Positions 2,145 to 40,167 of a stretch of 64,000 bases of DNA are shown in pieces. Origin of the DNA: Gemmatimonadaceae bacterium (lineage in GTDB: Bacteria > Gemmatimonadota > Gemmatimonadetes > Gemmatimonadales > Gemmatimonadaceae); the NCBI GenBank assembly GCA_035569435.1, contig DATMNB010000195.1:4894-68893 (forward strand), given 5' to 3'. Made by a program: the position numbers and the translations under genes. The notes below the pieces were generated by a model. The model was not told where the DNA came from and made no database searches. It saw only the letters and a list, made by a program, of their open reading frames with translations. Position 1 is the first letter of the stretch. Every line of letters starts with the position of its first letter.

Positions 2145-3080
2145 CTAGAGGCCGAGCCCCCGCAACTCATCGATGGGCTCCCGAAACGAACACGACCCAA
2201 ACGACAGCGCAAAGTTTGCCCGCGCGGCACGGATCGCCGGCGTCGTGGCGCGCCGATTCCCCCACGTCACCCCCTCGGCGTCGAACGCAAACGCGCGAGC
2301 CATCCGCTCATCCAACATCGCCACCGCATCCGCCGCCGGCACGCCGATGCGGACGAACGTCGCCGCGATGAACACGTTCATGAACCCGTGCATCGTGGCG
2401 GTCGGACTGTCCGGCTCATACGTGAGCCGGTAGTCCCCACGCACCGGGTGATGCAGTCCGGCCGTCGCCTTGAACGCCACCGCCGCCCGCGCGCAAGCGC
2501 GGAAGAACCGCACCAACTCCGCCGCCCCCGGAATCGCCTCTTCCGTCGTCCCCCCCGTCCGCACCTTGGCCCGCGCCCCGGCGTGCGACAATTCGGCGAT
2601 GAGCGGCGACGGATCGATCGTCGTCGGGATCTCCACGAACAACTCGATGTCCTCGGGCCGTGCCGCCACGAGCCGCGCGATGTCGGCCGCGCTCGCCGCC
2701 TTGCCCTCGATCGCATCAATCGTCGCGAACCCCGTCCCCCGCCCCACCCGGTGCCGTCGATTGAACTCGGCGACCCGCGCGAGGTCGCGATCCAGGTCGG
2801 GCCCGACGAGCGCGCTCACCCGCCACGGCGCGGCCGCCCGCCCACTCGCTCGCCCAAACAACGGCACCGCCTCGTCCTCGAGCTCCTCGAGCCGCGCCGC
2901 TCCCACGATGAACCGTCCGAGCGTGCGTCGATCCGTATCGCCGACATACGTCGCATAGCTCCGCACCGCCTGCCCCATCGCGAGCGCAGCCGGCGGAAAC
3001 AGTCCCGCATAGTCGACGAGCCCCGCGACCAGCGCGTCGACCGACGCCAATCGGGCCGGGGATGAAGAAACGGTCATCAC
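2145..3080 (-). CDS. conserved hypothetical protein (function not recognised)
   Basis: 311-aa ORF with GTG 3080 or ATG 3077 as start. Its stop (TAG 2147..2145) abuts the fahA start codon. Composition is balanced, unlike the Arg/Pro-rich shadow ORFs on the other frames. I recognise no motif. Confidence 0.5.
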   Translation of the reverse strand: MMTVSSSPARLASVDALVAGLVDYAGLFPPAALAMGQAVRSYATYVGDTDRRTLGRFIVGAARLEELEDEAVPLFGRASGRAAAPWRVSALVGPDLDRDLARVAEFNRRHRVGRGTGFATIDAIEGKAASAADIARLVAARPEDIELFVEIPTTIDPSPLIAELSHAGARAKVRTGGTTEEAIPGAAELVRFFRACARAAVAFKATAGLHHPVRGDYRLTYEPDSPTATMHGFMNVFIAATFVRIGVPAADAVAMLDERMARAFAFDAEGVTWGNRRATTPAIRAARANFALSFGSCSFREPIDELRGLGL

Positions 3081-32235: not shown

Positions 32236-32850
32236 TTAATGCCGCTGGGCCGCGCGCCGTTCCAAGGTCAGCCGGACATCATCCAACCCAACGCCGAGGG
32301 CGCGGAGCGCGACGAGGGTATGATACACGACGTCGGCCGCCTCGTCCGTCGCGCGATCCCGGTCGCCATCCGCGCACGCGGCCACCAGTTCCGCCATCTC
32401 CTCGCCGAGCTTCTTGAGTCGCAGGTTGCGGTCGCCAAGGAGCCGGCGCGTGTAGCTGGACTCGTCGGCCCCCGCGGCCGGGGTGGCCCTGGCGGCGAGC
32501 GTCCGGTCGAGCGTCGAGAGCGCATCGCCCCCCGCGCCATTGAAACAACTGACGGCTCCGGTGTGGCAGGCCGGTCCACGGGGCTCGACCAGCGCCAACA
32601 CCGTGTCGCCATCGCAGTCGGCCGTGAGCGACACGACGCGCTGCGTGTTGCCACTTGTGGCGCCCTTGTGCCACAGTCCGCGGCGTCGCGAGAAATAGTG
32701 CATCTCGCCCGTGGCCACCGTCCGCTCCAATGCCTCGCGATTGCTGAGCGCGACCATGAGCACGGCGCCAGTCACGGCGTCCTGCGCGACCACCGTCACC
32801 AGGCCTCCGCCTTTGTCGAAGTCGAGCGCATCGAGATCGAGACCGATCAC
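32236..32850 (-). CDS. hisIE: bifunctional phosphoribosyl-AMP cyclohydrolase / phosphoribosyl-ATP pyrophosphatase
   Basis: GTG at 32850 ([24 protein letters not shown]...) overlaps the hisN stop (GTGA). HisI motifs: [27 protein letters not shown]. HisE tail: YT..LL...N...KK.GEE..E. Confidence 0.9.
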
Positions 32851-33602
32851 GGCTCCTCCACGAGCGCCGCGCGCACCACGTCGGCCAGGGCGAGATTGGT
32901 CGCGATGCCGCCTCCGCCAAACGCTGTCGAGCGCCCCTGCCAGTCGGTGAACGCCCCGCCGGCCTCGGTGACCACCACGAAGGGCGCGGCCGCGTCCCAC
33001 ACCTGCATCGTGCTGTCCGCCATGACCTCGGCGCGTCCGGTCGCGACCATCAGATAGCCAAACCCGTCGCCCCACGTCCGCGCCACTGAGGCCGCCGCGG
33101 TCAACGCGCCCCATCGGTTGGCGCGGTCGGGCCGATCAAAGAATCGGTCATCACTCGTCACGATCGTCGCCTTGGCGAGCGTGCCGACCGAGGACACGTG
33201 GCATCGCGTCCCGTTGTGCCACGCGCCCTCGCCGCGTGCGGCGATGACAAGCTCACCGGCCGCGGGACAGTATACGGCGCCACCCAGGATCGCGTCACCC
33301 TCGGCGACGGCAATGAGCGTCGCCCACAGCGGCACGCCGCGCACAAAGGCTTTCGTGCCATCGATCGGATCGATGATCCAGAGACGCCGGGCATTCGGGC
33401 GCACGACGCCGTGTTCCTCGCCGAGGATCCCGTCTTTGGGGAAATGCCGCTCGATCCATTGGCGCGCAACCATCTCAGCGCCGCGGTCGGCCTCGGTGAC
33501 GGGCGAGCCATCAGATTTCGTCTCGACGGCCAACCCGGTCTTGAACCGGGCCAACGCCGCGTCGCCAACGGCGCGGGCGAGGTCGCTCACTGCCTGCAGC
33601 AT
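32847..33602 (-). CDS. hisN: inositol-monophosphatase-family histidinol-phosphate phosphatase
   Basis: ATG at 33602 ([13 protein letters not shown]...). IMPase motifs: [35 protein letters not shown]. The function is inferred from its position inside the his operon and from hisB being monofunctional. Confidence 0.75.
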
Positions 33603-34360
33603 ATCCCGGCCTCCGTCATGGCGTGCTTGATCCGGCCCACGGTCGTCATGCCATCGTGCACGATCCCCGCGACGAGCGCCGCGTCGGCGCGGCCCGCGTC
33701 GCCGAGCACGGCGCAGACGTCGGCCTCGGAGCCGGCGCCGCCAGAGGCGATCACCGGCACATCGACCGCCTCGACGACGGCCCGCGTGAGCGCCACGTCG
33801 TAGCCGGCCCGACCGCCATCGCGGTCGATGCTCGTCAGCAGGATCTCGCCCGCGCCGCGCGCGACGCATTCGGCGGCCCAGCTCACGGCGTCCAGGTCCG
33901 TTGGCGTGCGACCGCCCTGGACGAAGACGCGCCACGGCGAGCCCGGCATCGTGGGATCGTGCGCGGCATCGATGCTGGCCACCACGCATTGGGCGCCGAA
34001 GCGGTCGGCGGCTTCGGTCAGGACCGCTGGACGGCGGACGGCCGCCGAGTTGATGCTGACCTTGTCGGCTCCCGATCGTAAGGCCCGGGCGACGTCGTCG
34101 CTCGACCGGACGCCGCCGCCGATCGTGAGGGGCACAAAGAGCCGCTCGGCAGTCGAACGCGCCACATCGAGGAGCGTCGCGCGGGCCTCGGCGCTGGCCG
34201 AGATGTCGAGGAAGACGATCTCGTCGGCGCCGTCGGCCTCGTAGCGCTCGGCCAGCGCCACCGGGTCACCGATGTCGCGGAGGTCGACGAAGCGGACGCC
34301 TTTCACGACACGGCCTCCGTTGACGTCGAGGCAGACAATCACCCGTCGTCGTAGCATCAC
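33587..34360 (-). CDS. hisF: imidazole glycerol phosphate synthase, cyclase subunit
   Basis: 257 aa. RVIVCLDV..GRVVKG..F, PLTIGGGVRS and ASGGAG motifs. Confidence 0.95.
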   Translation of the reverse strand: MMLRRRVIVCLDVNGGRVVKGVRFVDLRDIGDPVALAERYEADGADEIVFLDISASAEARATLLDVARSTAERLFVPLTIGGGVRSSDDVARALRSGADKVSINSAAVRRPAVLTEAADRFGAQCVVASIDAAHDPTMPGSPWRVFVQGGRTPTDLDAVSWAAECVARGAGEILLTSIDRDGGRAGYDVALTRAVVEAVDVPVIASGGAGSEADVCAVLGDAGRADAALVAGIVHDGMTTVGRIKHAMTEAGICCRQ

Positions 34361-34890
34361 GTCGACTCGACGGCGCCTTTGGTACTGAACACCGCGCCAC
34401 TCTCGACGAGGGCGTCGCGCAACGCCAGGCCCAGCGCCTTGAACGCCGCCTCGACGACGTGGTGGCGATCGTGCCCGCGCAACACGCGAATGTGCAGCGT
34501 GACATTGGCGTTGTCAGCAAACGACCGCATCCAGTGGTCATAGAGCGAGCTCGGAAGCGGCCCCCGATAGTACGGCCGTCCACCAGTGTCCAGCGACACA
34601 TGCACGAGCGCATCGTCCATGCCGATCGTCCGATCGCCGTACCGCGCCGCCGTGGCGGGGACGAGCCGCGCCACGGCCGTGCCCATGGCGATCCCCACGT
34701 CTTCGATCAGATGATGCTTGAGATCCCCGGCCGCGGTGATCGAGAGGTCGAACGCCGCATAGCGCGCCAGCGTGACCATCATGTGATCGAGAAACGGCTG
34801 CCCGGTGACGACACTGGCCTGCCCCTCACCGCGCGCCACTTCGATCCGAATGCGGGTCTCCTTGGTGGCCCGCGTGATGACGATGCTCAT
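34357..34890 (-). CDS. hisB: imidazoleglycerol-phosphate dehydratase (monofunctional)
   Basis: ATG at 34890 overlaps the hisA stop (ATGA). TKETRIRIEV, FLDHMM, DLKHHLIEDVGIA and GHDRHHVVEAAFKALG motifs. At 177 aa there is no phosphatase domain. Confidence 0.95.
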   Translation of the reverse strand: MSIVITRATKETRIRIEVARGEGQASVVTGQPFLDHMMVTLARYAAFDLSITAAGDLKHHLIEDVGIAMGTAVARLVPATAARYGDRTIGMDDALVHVSLDTGGRPYYRGPLPSSLYDHWMRSFADNANVTLHIRVLRGHDRHHVVEAAFKALGLALRDALVESGAVFSTKGAVEST

Positions 34891-35600
34891 TCGCCAAATT
34901 CTCCGGCCGCGGCGCGCGGGTCGATCGCGCCCGTGTAGAGCGCCATCCCAATGACGGCCGCCGCGACACCGCGGTGTGCCAGGGCGCGCAGATCGTGCAA
35001 CGTCGTGATCCCGCCCGCCGCGTACACGGGGAACGCGGCCGCCTCGGCCACGTCTTCCATGAGCGGCAGATCGGTGCCCTGCAACTGCCCTTCGCGGTGC
35101 ACGGCCGTCACGAGCACGCCGGCCAGCGGCAACGCGTTCAACTCCTCGATCGCGTCGAGCACGTTGAGCGGGAGCGACCGCGCCCACCCCCGCGTCACGA
35201 CCCGCCGGTCGCGCACGTCCGCGGCGACGATGAGCACGCCGGGGAACCGCGAGGTCATCTCGTCCAGCCAGTCGCTGTCCTCCATGGCCCGTGTCCCGAC
35301 GATGACGCGCGCGGCCCCGTCGGCGAGCAGCTCTTCGATCCGCCCGCCATCGCGCACCCCGCCCCCCACCTGGACCTCGGCGTCAGTCGCGCCGAGGATG
35401 TCGCGGACCATGCCGATGTTGGAACCGCGCCCGGTCGCCGCATCGAGGTCGATCAGGTGCAACGCGCGGAAGCCGGCGTCGAGCCACGCGCGCGCCACGG
35501 CGACGGGATCCGAGAGCCGGACGCTTTCCCGCTCGTACGCACCACCTACGAGCTGCACACAGGCGCCGCCGCGGAGGTCTACTGCTGGGAGGGCAATCAC
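34887..35600 (-). CDS. hisA: 1-(5-phosphoribosyl)-5-[(5-phosphoribosylamino)methylideneamino]imidazole-4-carboxamide isomerase
   Basis: GTG at 35600 (VIALPAVDLRGG.CVQLVGG) overlaps the hisH stop (GTGA). LHLIDLDAA, VQVGGGVR and AAGGI motifs. Confidence 0.9.
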   Translation of the reverse strand: MIALPAVDLRGGACVQLVGGAYERESVRLSDPVAVARAWLDAGFRALHLIDLDAATGRGSNIGMVRDILGATDAEVQVGGGVRDGGRIEELLADGAARVIVGTRAMEDSDWLDEMTSRFPGVLIVAADVRDRRVVTRGWARSLPLNVLDAIEELNALPLAGVLVTAVHREGQLQGTDLPLMEDVAEAAAFPVYAAGGITTLHDLRALAHRGVAAAVIGMALYTGAIDPRAAAGEFGE

Positions 35601-36193
35601 GCGAGTGTGCTCACGAACGCCTGCACAAACCGGACGCCCGGCGAGGAGCTCTTCTCGGGATGGAACTGGACACCGACGGTGCGCCGCCAACGGACGGCGG
35701 CCGGGAACCGGTCGCCCCCCTCTTCGGTCCACGCCGTCACCGACGTCAGATCGGTCGGCCGACAGATGTAACTATGAGCATAGTAGACCACGTCCAGCGG
35801 CGCGACGCTGAGCAGCGGGTCAGTCGCGGATTCGACCGCGTTCCACCCGATGTGCGGTACCCGTGGCGCAACCAACCGGGTCACGCGCCCCGGAATGACG
35901 CCCAGCCCGGCACCGCCGCCCTCGTCGCTGCCATCAAAGAGCAGCTGCATGCCGAGGCAGATCCCGAGGCACGGCAGCCCGCCCTCGAGCGCGGCGGCCA
36001 TTGCCGCACGTCCAGGCGCCAACCGGTCCGCCGCCGCGCCAAACGCACCGACGCCCGGCAACACCAACGCATCGGTGTCCAACGCGGCCACCGGATCGGT
36101 CTCGATACGCACGTCGACTCCGGGCGCGGCCAGCGCCTTCGCCAGCGAGTGCAAGTTCCCCGCGCCGTAGTCGAACACGGTGACCCGCCTCAT
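35597..36193 (-). CDS. hisH: imidazole glycerol phosphate synthase, glutamine amidotransferase subunit
   Basis: ATG at 36193 (MRRVTVFDYGAGNLHSLAKAL) overlaps the hisC stop (ATGA). Catalytic GICLGMQLL, HIGWN and FHPEKS motifs. Confidence 0.95.
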   Translation of the reverse strand: MRRVTVFDYGAGNLHSLAKALAAPGVDVRIETDPVAALDTDALVLPGVGAFGAAADRLAPGRAAMAAALEGGLPCLGICLGMQLLFDGSDEGGGAGLGVIPGRVTRLVAPRVPHIGWNAVESATDPLLSVAPLDVVYYAHSYICRPTDLTSVTAWTEEGGDRFPAAVRWRRTVGVQFHPEKSSSPGVRFVQAFVSTLA

Positions 36194-37221
36194 GACCCGG
36201 CTCTTGCCGCGAGTGCCTCGAGGCACTGTGCCATGAGCGGCCACGGGCCGATCGTGATGCGAATGCCGTCCGGATATCCGCGAACGCCGATCCCGCGCGC
36301 GCACAGCGCCGTCACGATTCCCGCGCTCGGCTGCGACGTGTGCGCGAACACAAAGTTGCCAAACGACGGCACCACCCGAACCCCCGGGATCGCCGCCAGC
36401 GCCTGCTCGAACCGCCGGCGGTTGGCAACCGCCTCTGCGACGTGCTCGGCCACCCACTCCCGATCTTCCGTGAGCGCCGCATACGCGGCCTGCTCAGCGA
36501 CCACGTTCACCTTGTACGGCCCTCTCGACTTCTCCACCTCGGCGATCAGCGCCGGCGCCGCGGCGCCGTACCCGATCCGAAGCCCTGCCAGCCCAAACGC
36601 CTTCGACATGGTGCGCGTGATCAAGAGCCGGTCCGACCGCGCCAGCAGGTCGACCGACGACACGCCGGCAAACTCGGCATATGCCTCGTCGATCATGACG
36701 ACCCCCGGCGCGTCGGCGACAACTCGCTCGATCGTCGCGCGCGAGACGAGCGTGCCCGTGGGATTGTTGGGCGAGCAGAGATACATGATCCGCGCGCCCG
36801 TCGCGAGCAGCCCGTCAGCATCGGCGTCGTAGTCGGCCGTGAGCGGCACCGGCACCGCCACCAGCCCATTCATGCGCGCGAACGTCGAAGCCATCGGGAA
36901 CGTCGGATCGAGATACGCAAACCGCTCCCCGGGATCGGCGAACGCGCGAATGGCCGAATCAATCACATCGTCGGAGCCGCACCCCGTGACGATCATCTCG
37001 GGCTCGACGCCGAGATAGTCGGCCAGCACGCCCTTGAGCCCGCGGGCGTAGACGTTGGGATACTTTGTCGCGCCCGTCGCCGCCGCCTGCGCCGCGGCCC
37101 GGGCGGCCGGTGGCATCCCCCACAAGTTCGTGTTGTCGCTCAGATCGATCGCGCATCGCTCCCGCTCGGTGCCATAGAGGGCGATGTCGCGATACACCGC
37201 CCGCCCGGTCATGGGCGTCAT
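36190..37221 (-). CDS. hisC: histidinol-phosphate aminotransferase
   Basis: 343 aa. Class II aminotransferase with NPNNPTG, the PLP Lys in TMSKAFGLAGLRIGY, and IRITIG. ATG at 37221 overlaps the hisD stop (ATGA). Confidence 0.9.
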   Translation of the reverse strand: MTPMTGRAVYRDIALYGTERERCAIDLSDNTNLWGMPPAARAAAQAAATGATKYPNVYARGLKGVLADYLGVEPEMIVTGCGSDDVIDSAIRAFADPGERFAYLDPTFPMASTFARMNGLVAVPVPLTADYDADADGLLATGARIMYLCSPNNPTGTLVSRATIERVVADAPGVVMIDEAYAEFAGVSSVDLLARSDRLLITRTMSKAFGLAGLRIGYGAAAPALIAEVEKSRGPYKVNVVAEQAAYAALTEDREWVAEHVAEAVANRRRFEQALAAIPGVRVVPSFGNFVFAHTSQPSAGIVTALCARGIGVRGYPDGIRITIGPWPLMAQCLEALAARAGS

Positions 37222-38519
37222 GTGTCACCCCACGCCGCGGCCGCGGCAGCGTGCGCCGGGAGATGTTCGGCGGTGGCGAACGCCGCCGCGTCGGCCGCCA
37301 ACCGCCCGGCCGCCACTCGATCGACGCGCTGATACGTCGTCCACCGCACGAAATCCATCGTCGATAACCCTGAATACGACCGCGCCAGGCCGCCAGTCGG
37401 CAGCACGTGGTTCGCGCCCGTGAGATAATCCCCAAAGACCACCGAGCTCGTCTCCCCGAAGAATACCGTCCCGACATTACGAACCCCGGCGAACGCACCC
37501 GCAGGATCGGCGATCGCCAGCAACAGGTGCTCGGGCGCCCACTCGTTCACGAGCGCGATGGCTTCGTCGACCGACTGCGCCACGAGCAGTGCGCCTCGTG
37601 TCGCCAACGACTCGGCGATGATCACGTGTCTGGGCTGGGCAACCGCAAGTGTTTCAATGGCATTGGCAATCCGCCGGGCCACTGCCGCCCCGATCGCCAC
37701 GACGACCACCGCCGCCTGCGGGTCGTGCTCGGCTTGGGCCATGACCTCCCGCGCCACGATCTCCGGATCAGCCGCGCGGTCCGCCACGACGAGCAACTCG
37801 CTCGGGCCCGCCGGCGAGTCGATCCCCACGACGCTCGCCACCTGCAACTTGGCCTCGGCCACATACGCGTTGCCCGGCCCCACGATCCGGTCCACGCGTG
37901 GAATGGTTCGCGTCCCATAGGCCATCGCCGCGATCGCGCCGGCGCCACCGACCGCGAACACCCGATCGACGCCGGCCAGCTCGGCCGCCGCGAGAATCAC
38001 CGGCGCGGGCTCACCAGGCTGCGTCGGCGGAGAACACACAATGACCTCGCCGACCCCCGCCACGCGCGCCGGGATCGCGCCCATGAGCAGACTGCTCGGA
38101 TAGGTCGCCCGCCCACCGGGCGCATACACGCCGACCCGCCCAATCGGATCGGGCCGCCGCCCGACCATCACGCCGGGCTCGGTCTCGATCTCCATCGCCT
38201 CCGGCAGGAACGCCCCATGCGCGGCGCGCAGGTTGCGCGCGCTCCGCTCCATGGCGAGGCGCAGCGCGGGTGGGATCGTGCTGAGCGCGGCACGCCACCG
38301 CTCGCGCGGGATCTCGATCGACGGCAGCGTTACCCCATCCAACTCGCGGGCGAGCTCGGCCAGCGCGCTGTCCCCGGCATCGCGCACGCGCGCAATGACC
38401 GCCGTGGTCGCACATCTCACCACATCGATATCCGCGGCACCAGCACGACAATACAGCGCGGCCCGATCCGCGGGACTGAGCGCGGCGATCGCCCCCGTAA
38501 ACCGAAAGATCCCGCTCAC
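37218..38519 (-). CDS. hisD: histidinol dehydrogenase
   Basis: GTG at 38519 overlaps the hisG stop (GTGA). VGVYAPGG.A.YPSS, QAEHD and GDY..G.NHVLPT motifs. 433 aa; the track ORF is over-extended by 150 codons. Confidence 0.95.
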   Translation of the reverse strand: MSGIFRFTGAIAALSPADRAALYCRAGAADIDVVRCATTAVIARVRDAGDSALAELARELDGVTLPSIEIPRERWRAALSTIPPALRLAMERSARNLRAAHGAFLPEAMEIETEPGVMVGRRPDPIGRVGVYAPGGRATYPSSLLMGAIPARVAGVGEVIVCSPPTQPGEPAPVILAAAELAGVDRVFAVGGAGAIAAMAYGTRTIPRVDRIVGPGNAYVAEAKLQVASVVGIDSPAGPSELLVVADRAADPEIVAREVMAQAEHDPQAAVVVVAIGAAVARRIANAIETLAVAQPRHVIIAESLATRGALLVAQSVDEAIALVNEWAPEHLLLAIADPAGAFAGVRNVGTVFFGETSSVVFGDYLTGANHVLPTGGLARSYSGLSTMDFVRWTTYQRVDRVAAGRLAADAAAFATAEHLPAHAAAAAAWGDT

Positions 38520-39367
38520 GGCATCAACCGTTCGATGCGCGTGACGAGAATGCCCTCGGCGCCGAGCGCCTTGAGGCCCGCGATCGTGCGATAGACCGTG
38601 TTGGATGCAACGACCGCGTGGACAGCGACCATCGTCCCGCCGTTCAAGACATCGATGACGGTGGGTCCATTGAGCCCCGGCAACACCGCGGTCACGCGAT
38701 CGAGCGCATGACGCGGCACGTTGGCCATGAGATAGCGCGTCCCACGCGCGCGGAGCACGGAGGCCAGGGCAGTGACCAGGTCGTTCAGACCGGTCGTGCC
38801 CGGCGCGGCGACGAGTCGGGCCGTCGACTCGAGCACGGTGGTGATCTCGCGCAGCCCATTGACCTTGAGCGTCGAGCCCGTCGATGTCAGATCGACGACG
38901 ATGTCGGCGATCCCCAAGTGCGGCGCGACCTCGCAGGCGCCGGAGACCGGGACAATGGTCGCCGGGCATCCGGCGTCCTCGAAGAACCGATGCGTGAGGC
39001 GTGGGAACACAGTTGCGACACGAAACGGCGTCGGGGCCGCTTGCAGGTCGGCGAACGACGTGACTGCGCTCTCCTCGTGTGCGGCGACGACGAGCCGGCA
39101 GGCACCGAACTCGAGGTCAAGCAGCGTGTCGAGCTCGCGCTGCGATTCGGCCACGAGATCCCAGCCGGTCACACCCGCGTGCGCGGCACCGTCCGCGACG
39201 AACTCGGGGATGTCCTGCGCCCGGACGAAGATGGCCTCGAACTCGCCGCCGAGCGATGCAGTGAGCGCTCGATCGCCGCGCGAGCGCACACCAAGTCCCG
39301 CATCCTCGAAGAGGCCGCGTGTGTCGTCGGCCAGACGGCCTTTGTTTGGCAATGCAATGCGTAGCAT
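38516..39367 (-). CDS. hisG: ATP phosphoribosyltransferase, long form
   Basis: 283 aa. MLRIALPNKGRL, DIVVDLTSTGSTLK..GL, and a C-terminal regulatory domain, so a HisZ-independent type is expected. Confidence 0.95.
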   Translation of the reverse strand: MLRIALPNKGRLADDTRGLFEDAGLGVRSRGDRALTASLGGEFEAIFVRAQDIPEFVADGAAHAGVTGWDLVAESQRELDTLLDLEFGACRLVVAAHEESAVTSFADLQAAPTPFRVATVFPRLTHRFFEDAGCPATIVPVSGACEVAPHLGIADIVVDLTSTGSTLKVNGLREITTVLESTARLVAAPGTTGLNDLVTALASVLRARGTRYLMANVPRHALDRVTAVLPGLNGPTVIDVLNGGTMVAVHAVVASNTVYRTIAGLKALGAEGILVTRIERLMP

Positions 39368-39380
39368 GAGTTTCCCGGAT

Positions 39381-39413
39381 AAACAAAAAAGGCCCGTCCT
39401 CTGCGGACGGGCC
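39381..39413 (-). terminator. intrinsic terminator (attenuator) between the His leader peptide and hisG
   Basis: Minus strand reads GGCCCGTCC-GCAGA-GGACGGGCC: a perfect 9-bp stem (39413..39391) followed directly by TTTTTTGTTT (39390..39381). It ends 13 nt before the hisG ATG. Confidence 0.85.
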
Positions 39414-39442
39414 TGGCGTGAGAGCGCGGACTGGGTGTTACA

Positions 39443-39526
39443 TCACCCGACGCACGCCACAACGCCTCGACCCGTCGGGCCGTGGCCATGGTGCGCATGA
39501 TGATGCTGCTGCAAGATCACGTTCAT
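39443..39526 (-). CDS. hisL: his operon leader peptide, 27 codons, six His in eight consecutive codons
   Basis: Too short for the ORF track. Minus strand: ATG AAC GTG ATC TTG CAG CAG CAT CAT CAT GCG CAC CAT GGC CAC GGC CCG ACG GGT CGA GGC GTT GTG GCG TGC GTC GGG TGA, i.e. MNVILQQHHHAHHGHGPTGRGVVACVG. Located 29 nt upstream of the terminator hairpin. Confidence 0.8.
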   Translation of the reverse strand: MNVILQQHHHAHHGHGPTGRGVVACVG

Positions 39527-39633
39527 GAGCCCAACCTAAGGTGATGTGGGCAGATTGCCAAGGCCGTCCTGAGCGAATACGTTGATCGGGACTCCTGAGT
39601 GAATTGGCACTGACGATTTGGAGGCTTTTTCGT

Positions 39634-40167
39634 ATGCGGATCTACCAGCTGACCCTCGCGACAGGCATGATGGCACTCGCCGCCTGCAGCGGCGGTGACA
39701 AAGGTGCGAGCGGTGGCAGCATGATGAGGGACACGACTTCAGCGCCGGCAGCAGCGCCCAAGGACACGACGGCGGCAGCGGCGGCGCCAGCAGCAGGGGC
39801 AGCGCCGGCGGCAGCAGCGGCGGCGATCACGGGTAAGACCGTGACGGTGAACATGATCGGCGACGCCAAGGGCTATCGCTTCGAGCCGGCGACGATCACG
39901 CTCAAAGTCGGCGATGGGATCAAGTTTGTGAACGTGACGGGCGGCCCGCACAACGTGACGTTCTGGGCCGATAGCATCCCGGCTGGTGCGGCCGCCGCGC
40001 TCGGCGCCAACATGCCGAACACGACGTCGCCGTTGACGGGCCCGCTCCTGATCGCGCCCAACGACACGTACACGGTGTCGTTTGCTGGGACCAAGGCGGG
40101 GTCGTACAAGTTCTACTGCACGCCGCACCTGGCACTCGGCATGAAGGGTTCGATTACGGTTCAGTAG
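39634..40167 (+). CDS. lipoprotein cupredoxin (plastocyanin/pseudoazurin-like type 1 copper protein), copy A
   Basis: ATG at 39634 with a GGAGG SD at 39620. Lipobox-like MALAAC|SGG, then an Ala/Thr-rich linker, then a cupredoxin domain with ligand candidates GGPHNV (His) and YCTPHLALGM (Cys, His, Met). Confidence 0.85.
   Translation: MRIYQLTLATGMMALAACSGGDKGASGGSMMRDTTSAPAAAPKDTTAAAAAPAAGAAPAAAAAAITGKTVTVNMIGDAKGYRFEPATITLKVGDGIKFVNVTGGPHNVTFWADSIPAGAAAALGANMPNTTSPLTGPLLIAPNDTYTVSFAGTKAGSYKFYCTPHLALGMKGSITVQ

Follow-up and report, generated by a model that had tools for sequence, protein, structure and literature searches.

A predicted histidine-specific transcription attenuator with a probably leaderless leader peptide mRNA upstream of hisG in Gemmatimonadota and Myxococcota

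Introduction

Does the short histidine-rich open reading frame located upstream of hisG in the DNA stretch described here belong to a switch that couples transcription of the his operon to the supply of histidine, and if so, how widely is such a switch distributed? In enterobacteria, the hisL leader senses His-tRNA through stalling of the ribosome (PMC9413887). According to a survey from 2010, leader-peptide systems had until then been known from Proteobacteria and Actinobacteria only, and Firmicutes were added by that survey (PMC2965389), while a review of his regulation from 2022 comprises Gammaproteobacteria and a few Firmicutes (PMC9413887). For the 64 kb of DNA that were analysed as a whole, in the following referred to as the window (GC content of 68%), the initial annotation had proposed the logic of a hisL-like attenuator outside Gammaproteobacteria. 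The comparative tests described below, which revealed a conserved His-run ORF, a conserved terminator and a competing antiterminator, support this proposal.

Results and Discussion

Leader open reading frame and terminator upstream of hisG

The leader ORF and all further elements of the locus are compiled in Table 1. Codons 8-15 of the ORF read CAT CAT CAT GCG CAC CAT GGC CAC, which places histidine at codons 8, 9, 10, 12, 13 and 15. When all six frames of the window were searched for stretches of eight codons with at least six histidines, this run was the only one found, and none occurred in 200 shuffled sequences. Since the run is unique in the window and absent from all 200 shuffles, it lies beyond the expectation by chance. 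The stop codon TGA (39445..39443) is followed after 29 nt by a hairpin with a perfect 9-bp GC stem, composed of GGCCCGUCC (39413..39405), the loop GCAGA and GGACGGGCC (39399..39391), and directly thereafter by UUUUUUGUUU. The terminator word showed one occurrence in the window compared to an expectation of zero, and the hairpin was recovered by the terminator scan, which gave 3 sites for this region compared to 0.3 expected. A second copy of the attenuator element was sought in the window, and none was found.

The product of hisG (283 amino acids) matched TIGR00070 with an E-value of 1e-61 as well as HisG_C, and eight further his genes follow downstream. The statements of the initial annotation on the sequence could all be reproduced, among them the 27-codon minus-strand ORF at 39526..39443 with six histidines in eight codons, which is exact to the base when the sequence is read again, the hairpin and U-tract at 39413..39381, which begin 29 nt after the TGA and end 13 nt before hisG, and the position of hisG at the head of a nine-gene his operon. 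Since only 13 nt lie between the U-tract and the ATG of hisG, this gene can be expressed only by read-through of the terminator. Upstream of the leader, a cupredoxin gene is located on the plus strand (about 39634..40167). It is oriented divergently, and the terminator is therefore not the end of an upstream co-directional unit. As a side observation, the gene for this copper-binding protein and the his leader have a common promoter region of roughly 110 nt.

Table 1. Position of the attenuator elements and the his genes in the window, with the evidence on which each element is based
Feature	Position	Strand	Evidence or remark
Predicted -35 box TTGGCA	39556..39561	-	17 nt upstream of the -10 box
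Predicted -10 box TAGGTT (TAnnnT)	39533..39538	-	ends 6 nt before the leader AUG
Predicted leader-peptide ORF MNVILQQHHHAHHGHGPTGRGVVACVG*	39443..39526	-	27 codons and TGA; ATG at 39526
Putative regulatory His-codon run, codons 8-15, 6 His in 8	39482..39505	-	unique in the window; family-wide His-codon counts
Region 1 (R1) GCCACGGCCC, predicted 5' arm of the anti-antiterminator, with the last His codon (CAC)	39477..39486	-	window MFE; 88.2% paired; -15.0 kcal/mol
Region 2 (R2) GACGGGUCGAGGCGU, pairs with R1 or R3	39462..39476	-	best leader partner of R3 in 58/60
Region 3 (R3) ACGCCAGGCCCGUCC, 5' arm of the terminator and 6 nt upstream, pairs with R2 or R4	39405..39419	-	2:3 core 94.8% paired
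Region 4 (R4) GGACGGGCC, 3' arm of the terminator	39391..39399	-	3:4 helix 93.3% paired; terminator scan; -22.4 kcal/mol
U-tract UUUUUUGUUU	39381..39390	-	sequence and terminator scan; U-tract in 93/94 metagenome loci
hisG, long-form ATP phosphoribosyltransferase, first regulated gene	38516..39367	-	ATG at 39367, 13 nt past the U-tract
hisD, hisC, hisH, hisA, hisB (IGPD), hisF, hisN, hisIE, remainder of the operon	32236..38519	-	

Conservation and distribution of the element

The closest relatives of the HisG protein belong to Gemmatimonadaceae and Myxococcaceae and share 67-75% identity with it. Among the GTDB species genomes, the top matches were MAGs of Gemmatimonadaceae and Gemmatimonas with up to 75% identity, while proteins of about 70% identity were found in Myxococcaceae and Archangiaceae (Myxococcus, Corallococcus, Pyxidicoccus, Hyalangium) and in two MAGs assigned to 'Candidatus Eisenbacteria'. 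For these two carriers (L050 and L067), the binning of the MAGs could be wrong. Furthermore, the HisG of the window is an exact match to an environmental metagenome contig.

As a check, the initial annotation had proposed to look for a His-run mini-ORF and a terminator upstream of hisG in related genomes. An automated scan of 80 orthologous loci, covering up to 450 nt upstream of hisG, detected the mini-ORF in 70 of them. Inspection of the ten negative loci revealed seven complete leaders, one leader cut by the end of the contig, one locus of which the contig retains the terminator only and one locus with neither, which raises the count to about 78 of 80. A GC hairpin with a U-tract precedes hisG in every leader-bearing locus, the stem being perfect in 70 of 81 cases and containing one G·U pair or one mismatch in 10 more. 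Two types of leader peptide can be distinguished, a Gemmatimonadota type (…HHHAHHGHGPTGRG…) and a Myxococcota type (…HHHHAHHRLGPDGT.RRAHAW…). Since both types can be aligned at the nucleotide level and comprise an identical terminator word, they are considered as one family. With its GC content of 68% and its leader of the Gemmatimonas type, the window most likely stems from a member of Gemmatimonadota, a lineage distant from Gammaproteobacteria. Two Myxococcaceae MAGs deviate from this picture: in one (L071), a closely related hisG comprises neither leader nor terminator upstream, and in the other (L075) a divergent short leader, MSPVSVSQHAHHHGPHGPVRAG, is combined with a different terminator word (GGGCCCGUG…).

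Metagenomes were searched independently with a 29-base pattern that covers R2, R3 and R4 only, and more than 119 loci were returned. Where enough downstream sequence was available, hisG was located 8-230 nt past the terminator in 71 of 72 loci, and the element therefore seems to be dedicated to the his operon. Every locus selected in this way showed a His run, except for one truncated by its contig (L147) and two chance matches (L114 at 2171..2277 and L176). The latter two lie within a coding region of the opposite strand and show neither U-tract nor His run, and were rejected. The false positives of the pattern thus amount to roughly 2 in 119. The HisG identity of about 70% across phyla, together with leader RNAs that can be aligned, suggests an inter-phylum transfer of the operon with its attenuator.

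Promoter and start of the leader transcript

A predicted promoter precedes the leader ORF of the window at a short distance (Table 1). The same arrangement was found in 57 of 58 Gemmatimonadota-type loci, in which TTGACN is followed after 17-18 nt by TAnnnT and, after a further 5-10 nt with a mode of 6-7, by an in-frame start codon (ATG in 54 and GTG in 3 of the 57). In the shuffled control, this spacing occurred in 3.9%. The arrangement recurred in 84 of 94 distinct metagenome loci, and 79 of these 84 start with ATG. The Myxococcota type, as judged by eye, shows TTGACG, 17-18 nt, TA[AC][CT][CG][AC], exactly 7 nt and GTG or ATG. A strict sigma-70 scan, which requires at least 4 of 6 matching positions per hexamer, missed the promoter of the window, as TAGGTT scores 3 of 6; it was recovered when positions were compared across the family.

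Since the -10 box is located 5-10 nt from the AUG, transcription is expected to begin directly at the start codon or no more than about 3 nt away from it. A Shine-Dalgarno (SD) sequence was sought before 77 leader ORFs; an SD-like 4-mer was present in only 2 of the 77, and none was found for the ORF of the window. The mRNA of the leader peptide is therefore probably leaderless, the start site being predicted from the promoter spacing.

Pairing segments and competing helices

Four segments, R1 to R4, can form helices that compete for R2 and R3. In an alignment of 60 sequences, the helix 1:2 was paired to 88.2%, 2:3 to 84.6% (94.8% in its core) and 3:4 to 93.3%, compared to 22-61% for controls with a slid register (29-61% in the case of 1:2). 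The median energies were -12.8 kcal/mol for 1:2, -24.6 kcal/mol for 2:3 and -20.9 kcal/mol for 3:4, and the corresponding values for the window were -15.0, -24.6 and -22.4 kcal/mol, those for 2:3 being duplex values that do not include loop closure. When the best partner of R3 was sought anywhere in the leader, the result was R2 for 58 of 60 sequences, the median z being -3.07 compared to shuffled R2. The antiterminator R2:R3 uses the same R3 strand as the terminator, while the hairpin R1:R2 would sequester the antiterminator strand and R1 contains the last His codon.

The evidence for these helices is conserved complementarity and not covariation. Paired columns are almost invariant, so that true covariation within R1-R4 is nearly absent, with no meaningful signal for 3:4 or 1:2. 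The extension of 2:3 showed a weak signal, with 16 cells changed on both sides, which was matched by 1 of 500 shuffles (a count that is not to be read as a probability).

The pairings listed in the initial annotation can be judged against these data. Its core antiterminator, GACGGGUC (39476..39469) with GGCCCGUC (in 39420..39406), was right and corresponds to the conserved helix 2:3. For the second antiterminator segment, UGGCGUG (39459..39453) with CACGCCA, the complementarity is real in the window, but across the family it was paired to only 42%, in the middle part of the alignment, which is poor. The segment that is used family-wide is the adjacent GGCG(U), in the window GGCGU at 39466..39462, which pairs with (A)CGCC. 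Similarly, the complementarity of CCCGACG (39479..39473) and CGUCGGG (39452..39446) exists, but with 67.7% pairing it was no better than the slid and shuffled controls. As a conserved anti-antiterminator it was therefore rejected; conservation was seen instead for the local hairpin GCCACGGCCC/GGGUCGAGGC at 39486..39464, paired to 88%.

In all 60 sequences, no in-frame stop codon occurs until past R2, and the stop codon lies between R2 and R3, 9-35 nt past R2 and with 19-44 nt remaining up to R3. His run and terminator are spaced at a steady distance of about 91-107 nt, while the position of the stop codon drifts.

Selection on codons and on RNA structure

The His codons are interchangeable across the family, with 173 CAU and 182 CAC. 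This indicates that selection acts on the identity of the His codons, i.e. on their decoding. A different picture was obtained for the codons in R1 and R2. Where a wobble position takes part in a base pair, it is fixed (C in 60/60 for column 48, G in 59/60 for column 54, and either U or C, facing a G, for column 57), whereas the wobbles at the hairpin loop (column 51) and at an internal mismatch (column 61) vary. Since paired wobbles are fixed and unpaired ones vary, selection on the RNA structure is indicated for R1 and R2. In our reading, the near-invariance of these columns results from the fact that GGCCCG(U/A)C and its complement serve several pairings and at the same time code for Gly-Pro-Thr-Gly.

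This signature argues for a translated sensor that is followed by an RNA switch, and against a functional peptide. According to the latter explanation, the ORF would encode a small His-rich peptide with a function of its own, for example in metal binding, equipped with its own terminator and located upstream of hisG by coincidence. The motif HHHAHHGHGPTGRG is indeed conserved in the peptide, as would be expected in this case. However, the wobbles of GPTGRG are fixed only where they are base-paired, so that the apparent conservation of this motif can be attributed to the constraint of RNA pairing, and both the C-terminus and the position of the stop codon vary. Moreover, the element precedes hisG in 71/72 loci that were chosen independently of hisG, and the 13 nt before hisG in the window leave no room for a separate promoter of this gene. 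An independent role of the peptide is thus considered to be extremely improbable.

With a slight preference over the opposite view, we regard the leaders as one leaderless His-attenuator family that occurs in Gemmatimonadota, in Myxococcota (Myxococcaceae/Archangiaceae) and possibly in Eisenbacteria, that may have spread together with the operon as a cassette, and in which the 9-nt terminator word GGCCCGUCC would be frozen across the distance between phyla by several pairing roles and by coding.

Proposed mechanism of the switch

Taken together, the element is best described as a histidine-specific ribosome-mediated transcription attenuator of the hisGDCHABFN(IE) operon, a function that we deduce from sequence comparison and to which a probability of about 85% is assigned. 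The ORF with its codon bias, the four complementary segments, the terminator, the conserved geometry and the spacing of the promoter are seen in the sequences, whereas translation of the ORF, the transcription start site, the structure adopted in each state and the response to histidine are the parts of this reading that we infer. Transcription would start at or near the leader AUG (39526) from the promoter TTGGCA-17-TAGGTT, and a ribosome could bind the 5'-terminal AUG immediately after its emergence and then track the polymerase. With ample His-tRNA(His), the ribosome would pass the His run, melt and cover R1 and R2 and reach the stop codon. R2 would then either be occluded or return to its pairing with R1 in the local hairpin at 39486..39464, so that R3 could pair with R4 and the RNA polymerase would terminate at the U-tract, 13 nt ahead of hisG. 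Under a shortage of charged tRNA(His), the ribosome would stall at the later His codons and cover R1, leaving R2 (39476..39462) free to capture the emerging R3 (39419..39405). No terminator would be formed in this case, and the operon would be transcribed. If the ribosome stalled on the first His codons instead, R1 would remain uncovered. We know of no studies on transcription-translation coupling in Gemmatimonadota or Myxococcota.

The two states were modelled by folding. When full-length leaders were folded with ribosome masks, the MFE structure retained the terminator nearly regardless of the mask, and the textbook pattern was obtained in 6 of 77 cases. Since the terminator is the most stable local hairpin, this equilibrium test on full-length leaders is uninformative. 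In transcripts truncated before R4, with the footprint of a ribosome on the His codons, R3 was paired to about 80%, and this pairing dropped only when the footprint at the last His codon covered R2 itself. Without a stalled ribosome, 2:3 was often the MFE structure of the truncated transcript too, with R3 paired to 64%. Folding of the truncated transcripts thus supports the availability of the antiterminator, and not a discrimination between the two states. As equilibrium folding does not separate the states, the switch would have to rest on kinetics or on occlusion by the ribosome.

The formation of 2:3 without a ribosome in equilibrium folding would also be compatible with a switch operated by a trans-acting factor, either a protein or a tRNA, in which the His-rich ORF would be an untranslated by-product of constraints on the RNA. 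The lack of an SD sequence on the leader ORF and the constraint of R1 and R2 at the RNA level point in the same direction. However, the structured segments are preceded by the His codons, in which synonymous changes occur but histidine is retained, an in-frame start codon is found at a fixed distance from the -10 box (ATG in 54/57 and 79/84), and the frame is open until past R2 in 60/60. Furthermore, there was no match to a T-box or another Rfam family, the T-box having been covered by Rfam scans of the window and of five relatives. The involvement of such a factor in place of the translating ribosome is therefore judged to be very unlikely.

A further question is whether the attenuator acts mainly or additionally on translation, the hairpin and U-tract occluding ribosome binding at hisG until translation of the leader opens them. 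In the MFE structure of the window, the U-tract pairs with GGGAAA just 5' of the hisG ATG (39368..39390, minus strand), and this is the only SD-like element of hisG in the window. In addition, a metagenome subgroup of eight loci (L086, L095, L096, L109, L115, L132, L165 and L186) was observed in which the ATG of hisG abuts the U-tract, GGACGGGC(C)TTTTTTTATGCT. Here, no room is left for an SD sequence of hisG, and the hairpin falls inside the footprint of a ribosome at the hisG start, so that control in this subgroup may be both transcriptional and translational. Its members failed the strict promoter test. For the family as a whole, a canonical intrinsic terminator of hairpin and U-tract is found in 93/94 loci, and the distance between terminator and hisG ranges from 8 to about 230 nt, so that occlusion cannot be general. 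Control acting mainly or additionally on translation is accordingly rated as unlikely compared to attenuation of transcription.

Comparison with known attenuators

The leader was compared to the described families. RF00514 (His_leader) was not recovered in the window at E<=10, nor in five relatives at E<=1, and no leader-peptide match was obtained at E<=10 with Pfam, including PF08047, and NCBIfam. None of 10 leader peptides had an exact counterpart among 15 billion predicted proteins, and nothing on a his leader or on his attenuation in Myxococcus or Gemmatimonadetes was found in the searchable literature. As far as can be judged from these comparisons, it is a new cross-phylum, probably leaderless RNA family of an old mechanism that is absent from Rfam, Pfam and NCBIfam.

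With hisL (RF00514/PF08047), the leaders of Gemmatimonadota and Myxococcota share a short His-run ORF upstream of hisG, alternative hairpins, an intrinsic terminator and, according to the proposed mechanism, the sensing of His-tRNA by a stalling ribosome, while no similarity in sequence or structure was detectable. The hisL peptide of E. coli comprises 7 consecutive histidines, whereas the run in the window is interrupted, with 6 in 8 codons. In addition, the ORF of the window runs 12 codons past the His run, through R1 and R2, and comprises no SD sequence, its mRNA probably being leaderless, and the lineages are different ones, namely Gemmatimonadota and Myxococcota.

In its predicted architecture, the element resembles trpL of E. 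coli as described by the Yanofsky model (PMC4007540), since 1:2, 2:3 and 3:4 compete, the regulatory codons are located just upstream of or within region 1, and a ribosome at the stop codon interferes with region 2. It differs from trpL in the amino acid sensed and in the leaderless initiation proposed for the window family. Moreover, R2 and R3 are set apart by a variable insertion of ~40-70 nt in which the stop codon is located.

Leaderless leader peptides also occur in Actinobacteria, as known from the attenuators of Corynebacterium and from Cys-rich sORFs of mycobacteria. For Deinococcus deserti, the main text of the respective paper describes 14 putative attenuation leader peptides that start at the 5' end of the transcript, and its authors contrast them with the SD-preceded leaders of E. 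coli (PMC4007540). The window family, with a start codon predicted to lie at the 5' end, a -10 box closely before it and no SD sequence, would resemble these leaders, and in both cases the peptide is enriched in the cognate residue and precedes genes of amino-acid biosynthesis or tRNA synthetases (PMC4007540). Compared to the sites predicted here from the spacing, the start sites of D. deserti were, as described there, measured by dRNA-seq, and the phyla are different; the word 'histidine' does not appear in the main text of that paper (PMC4007540).

The nearest precedents for histidine outside Gammaproteobacteria are predictions in Firmicutes. They comprise his attenuators in the B. cereus group, Peptostreptococcaceae and Erysipelotrichales (PMC9413887) and hisS/hisZ attenuators in bacilli (PMC2965389). 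As in the present case, a His leader with terminator and antiterminator was predicted by comparative genomics (PMC9413887, PMC2965389). The Firmicutes predictions are confined to narrow groups and show 3-5 consecutive His codons, whereas the window family covers two or three phyla with a near-invariant terminator.

Attenuation of his by a leader peptide is hereby extended to phyla for which no prior description was found in the searchable literature. The understanding of the attenuation mechanism itself is unchanged, and the occurrence of the element is not surprising in principle. With more than 200 loci, it represents a clean and widespread RNA family, common in soil metagenomes, which lends itself to an Rfam model and to the annotation of genomes. 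It also provides a neat case of a sequence frozen by overlapping constraints of coding and pairing. Myxococcus xanthus would offer a genetically tractable host for studies on how leaderless mRNA sustains the tight coupling of ribosome and polymerase on which attenuation depends.

Composition of the his operon

The order of the genes downstream of the attenuator, hisG-D-C-H-A-B-F-N-IE, differs from the enterobacterial order G-D-C-B-H-A-F-I. In the window, hisB encodes a monofunctional IGPD, and a separate hisN for histidinol-phosphatase is located inside the operon. Several of the his ORFs overlap at their junctions (window 32236..39367, minus strand).
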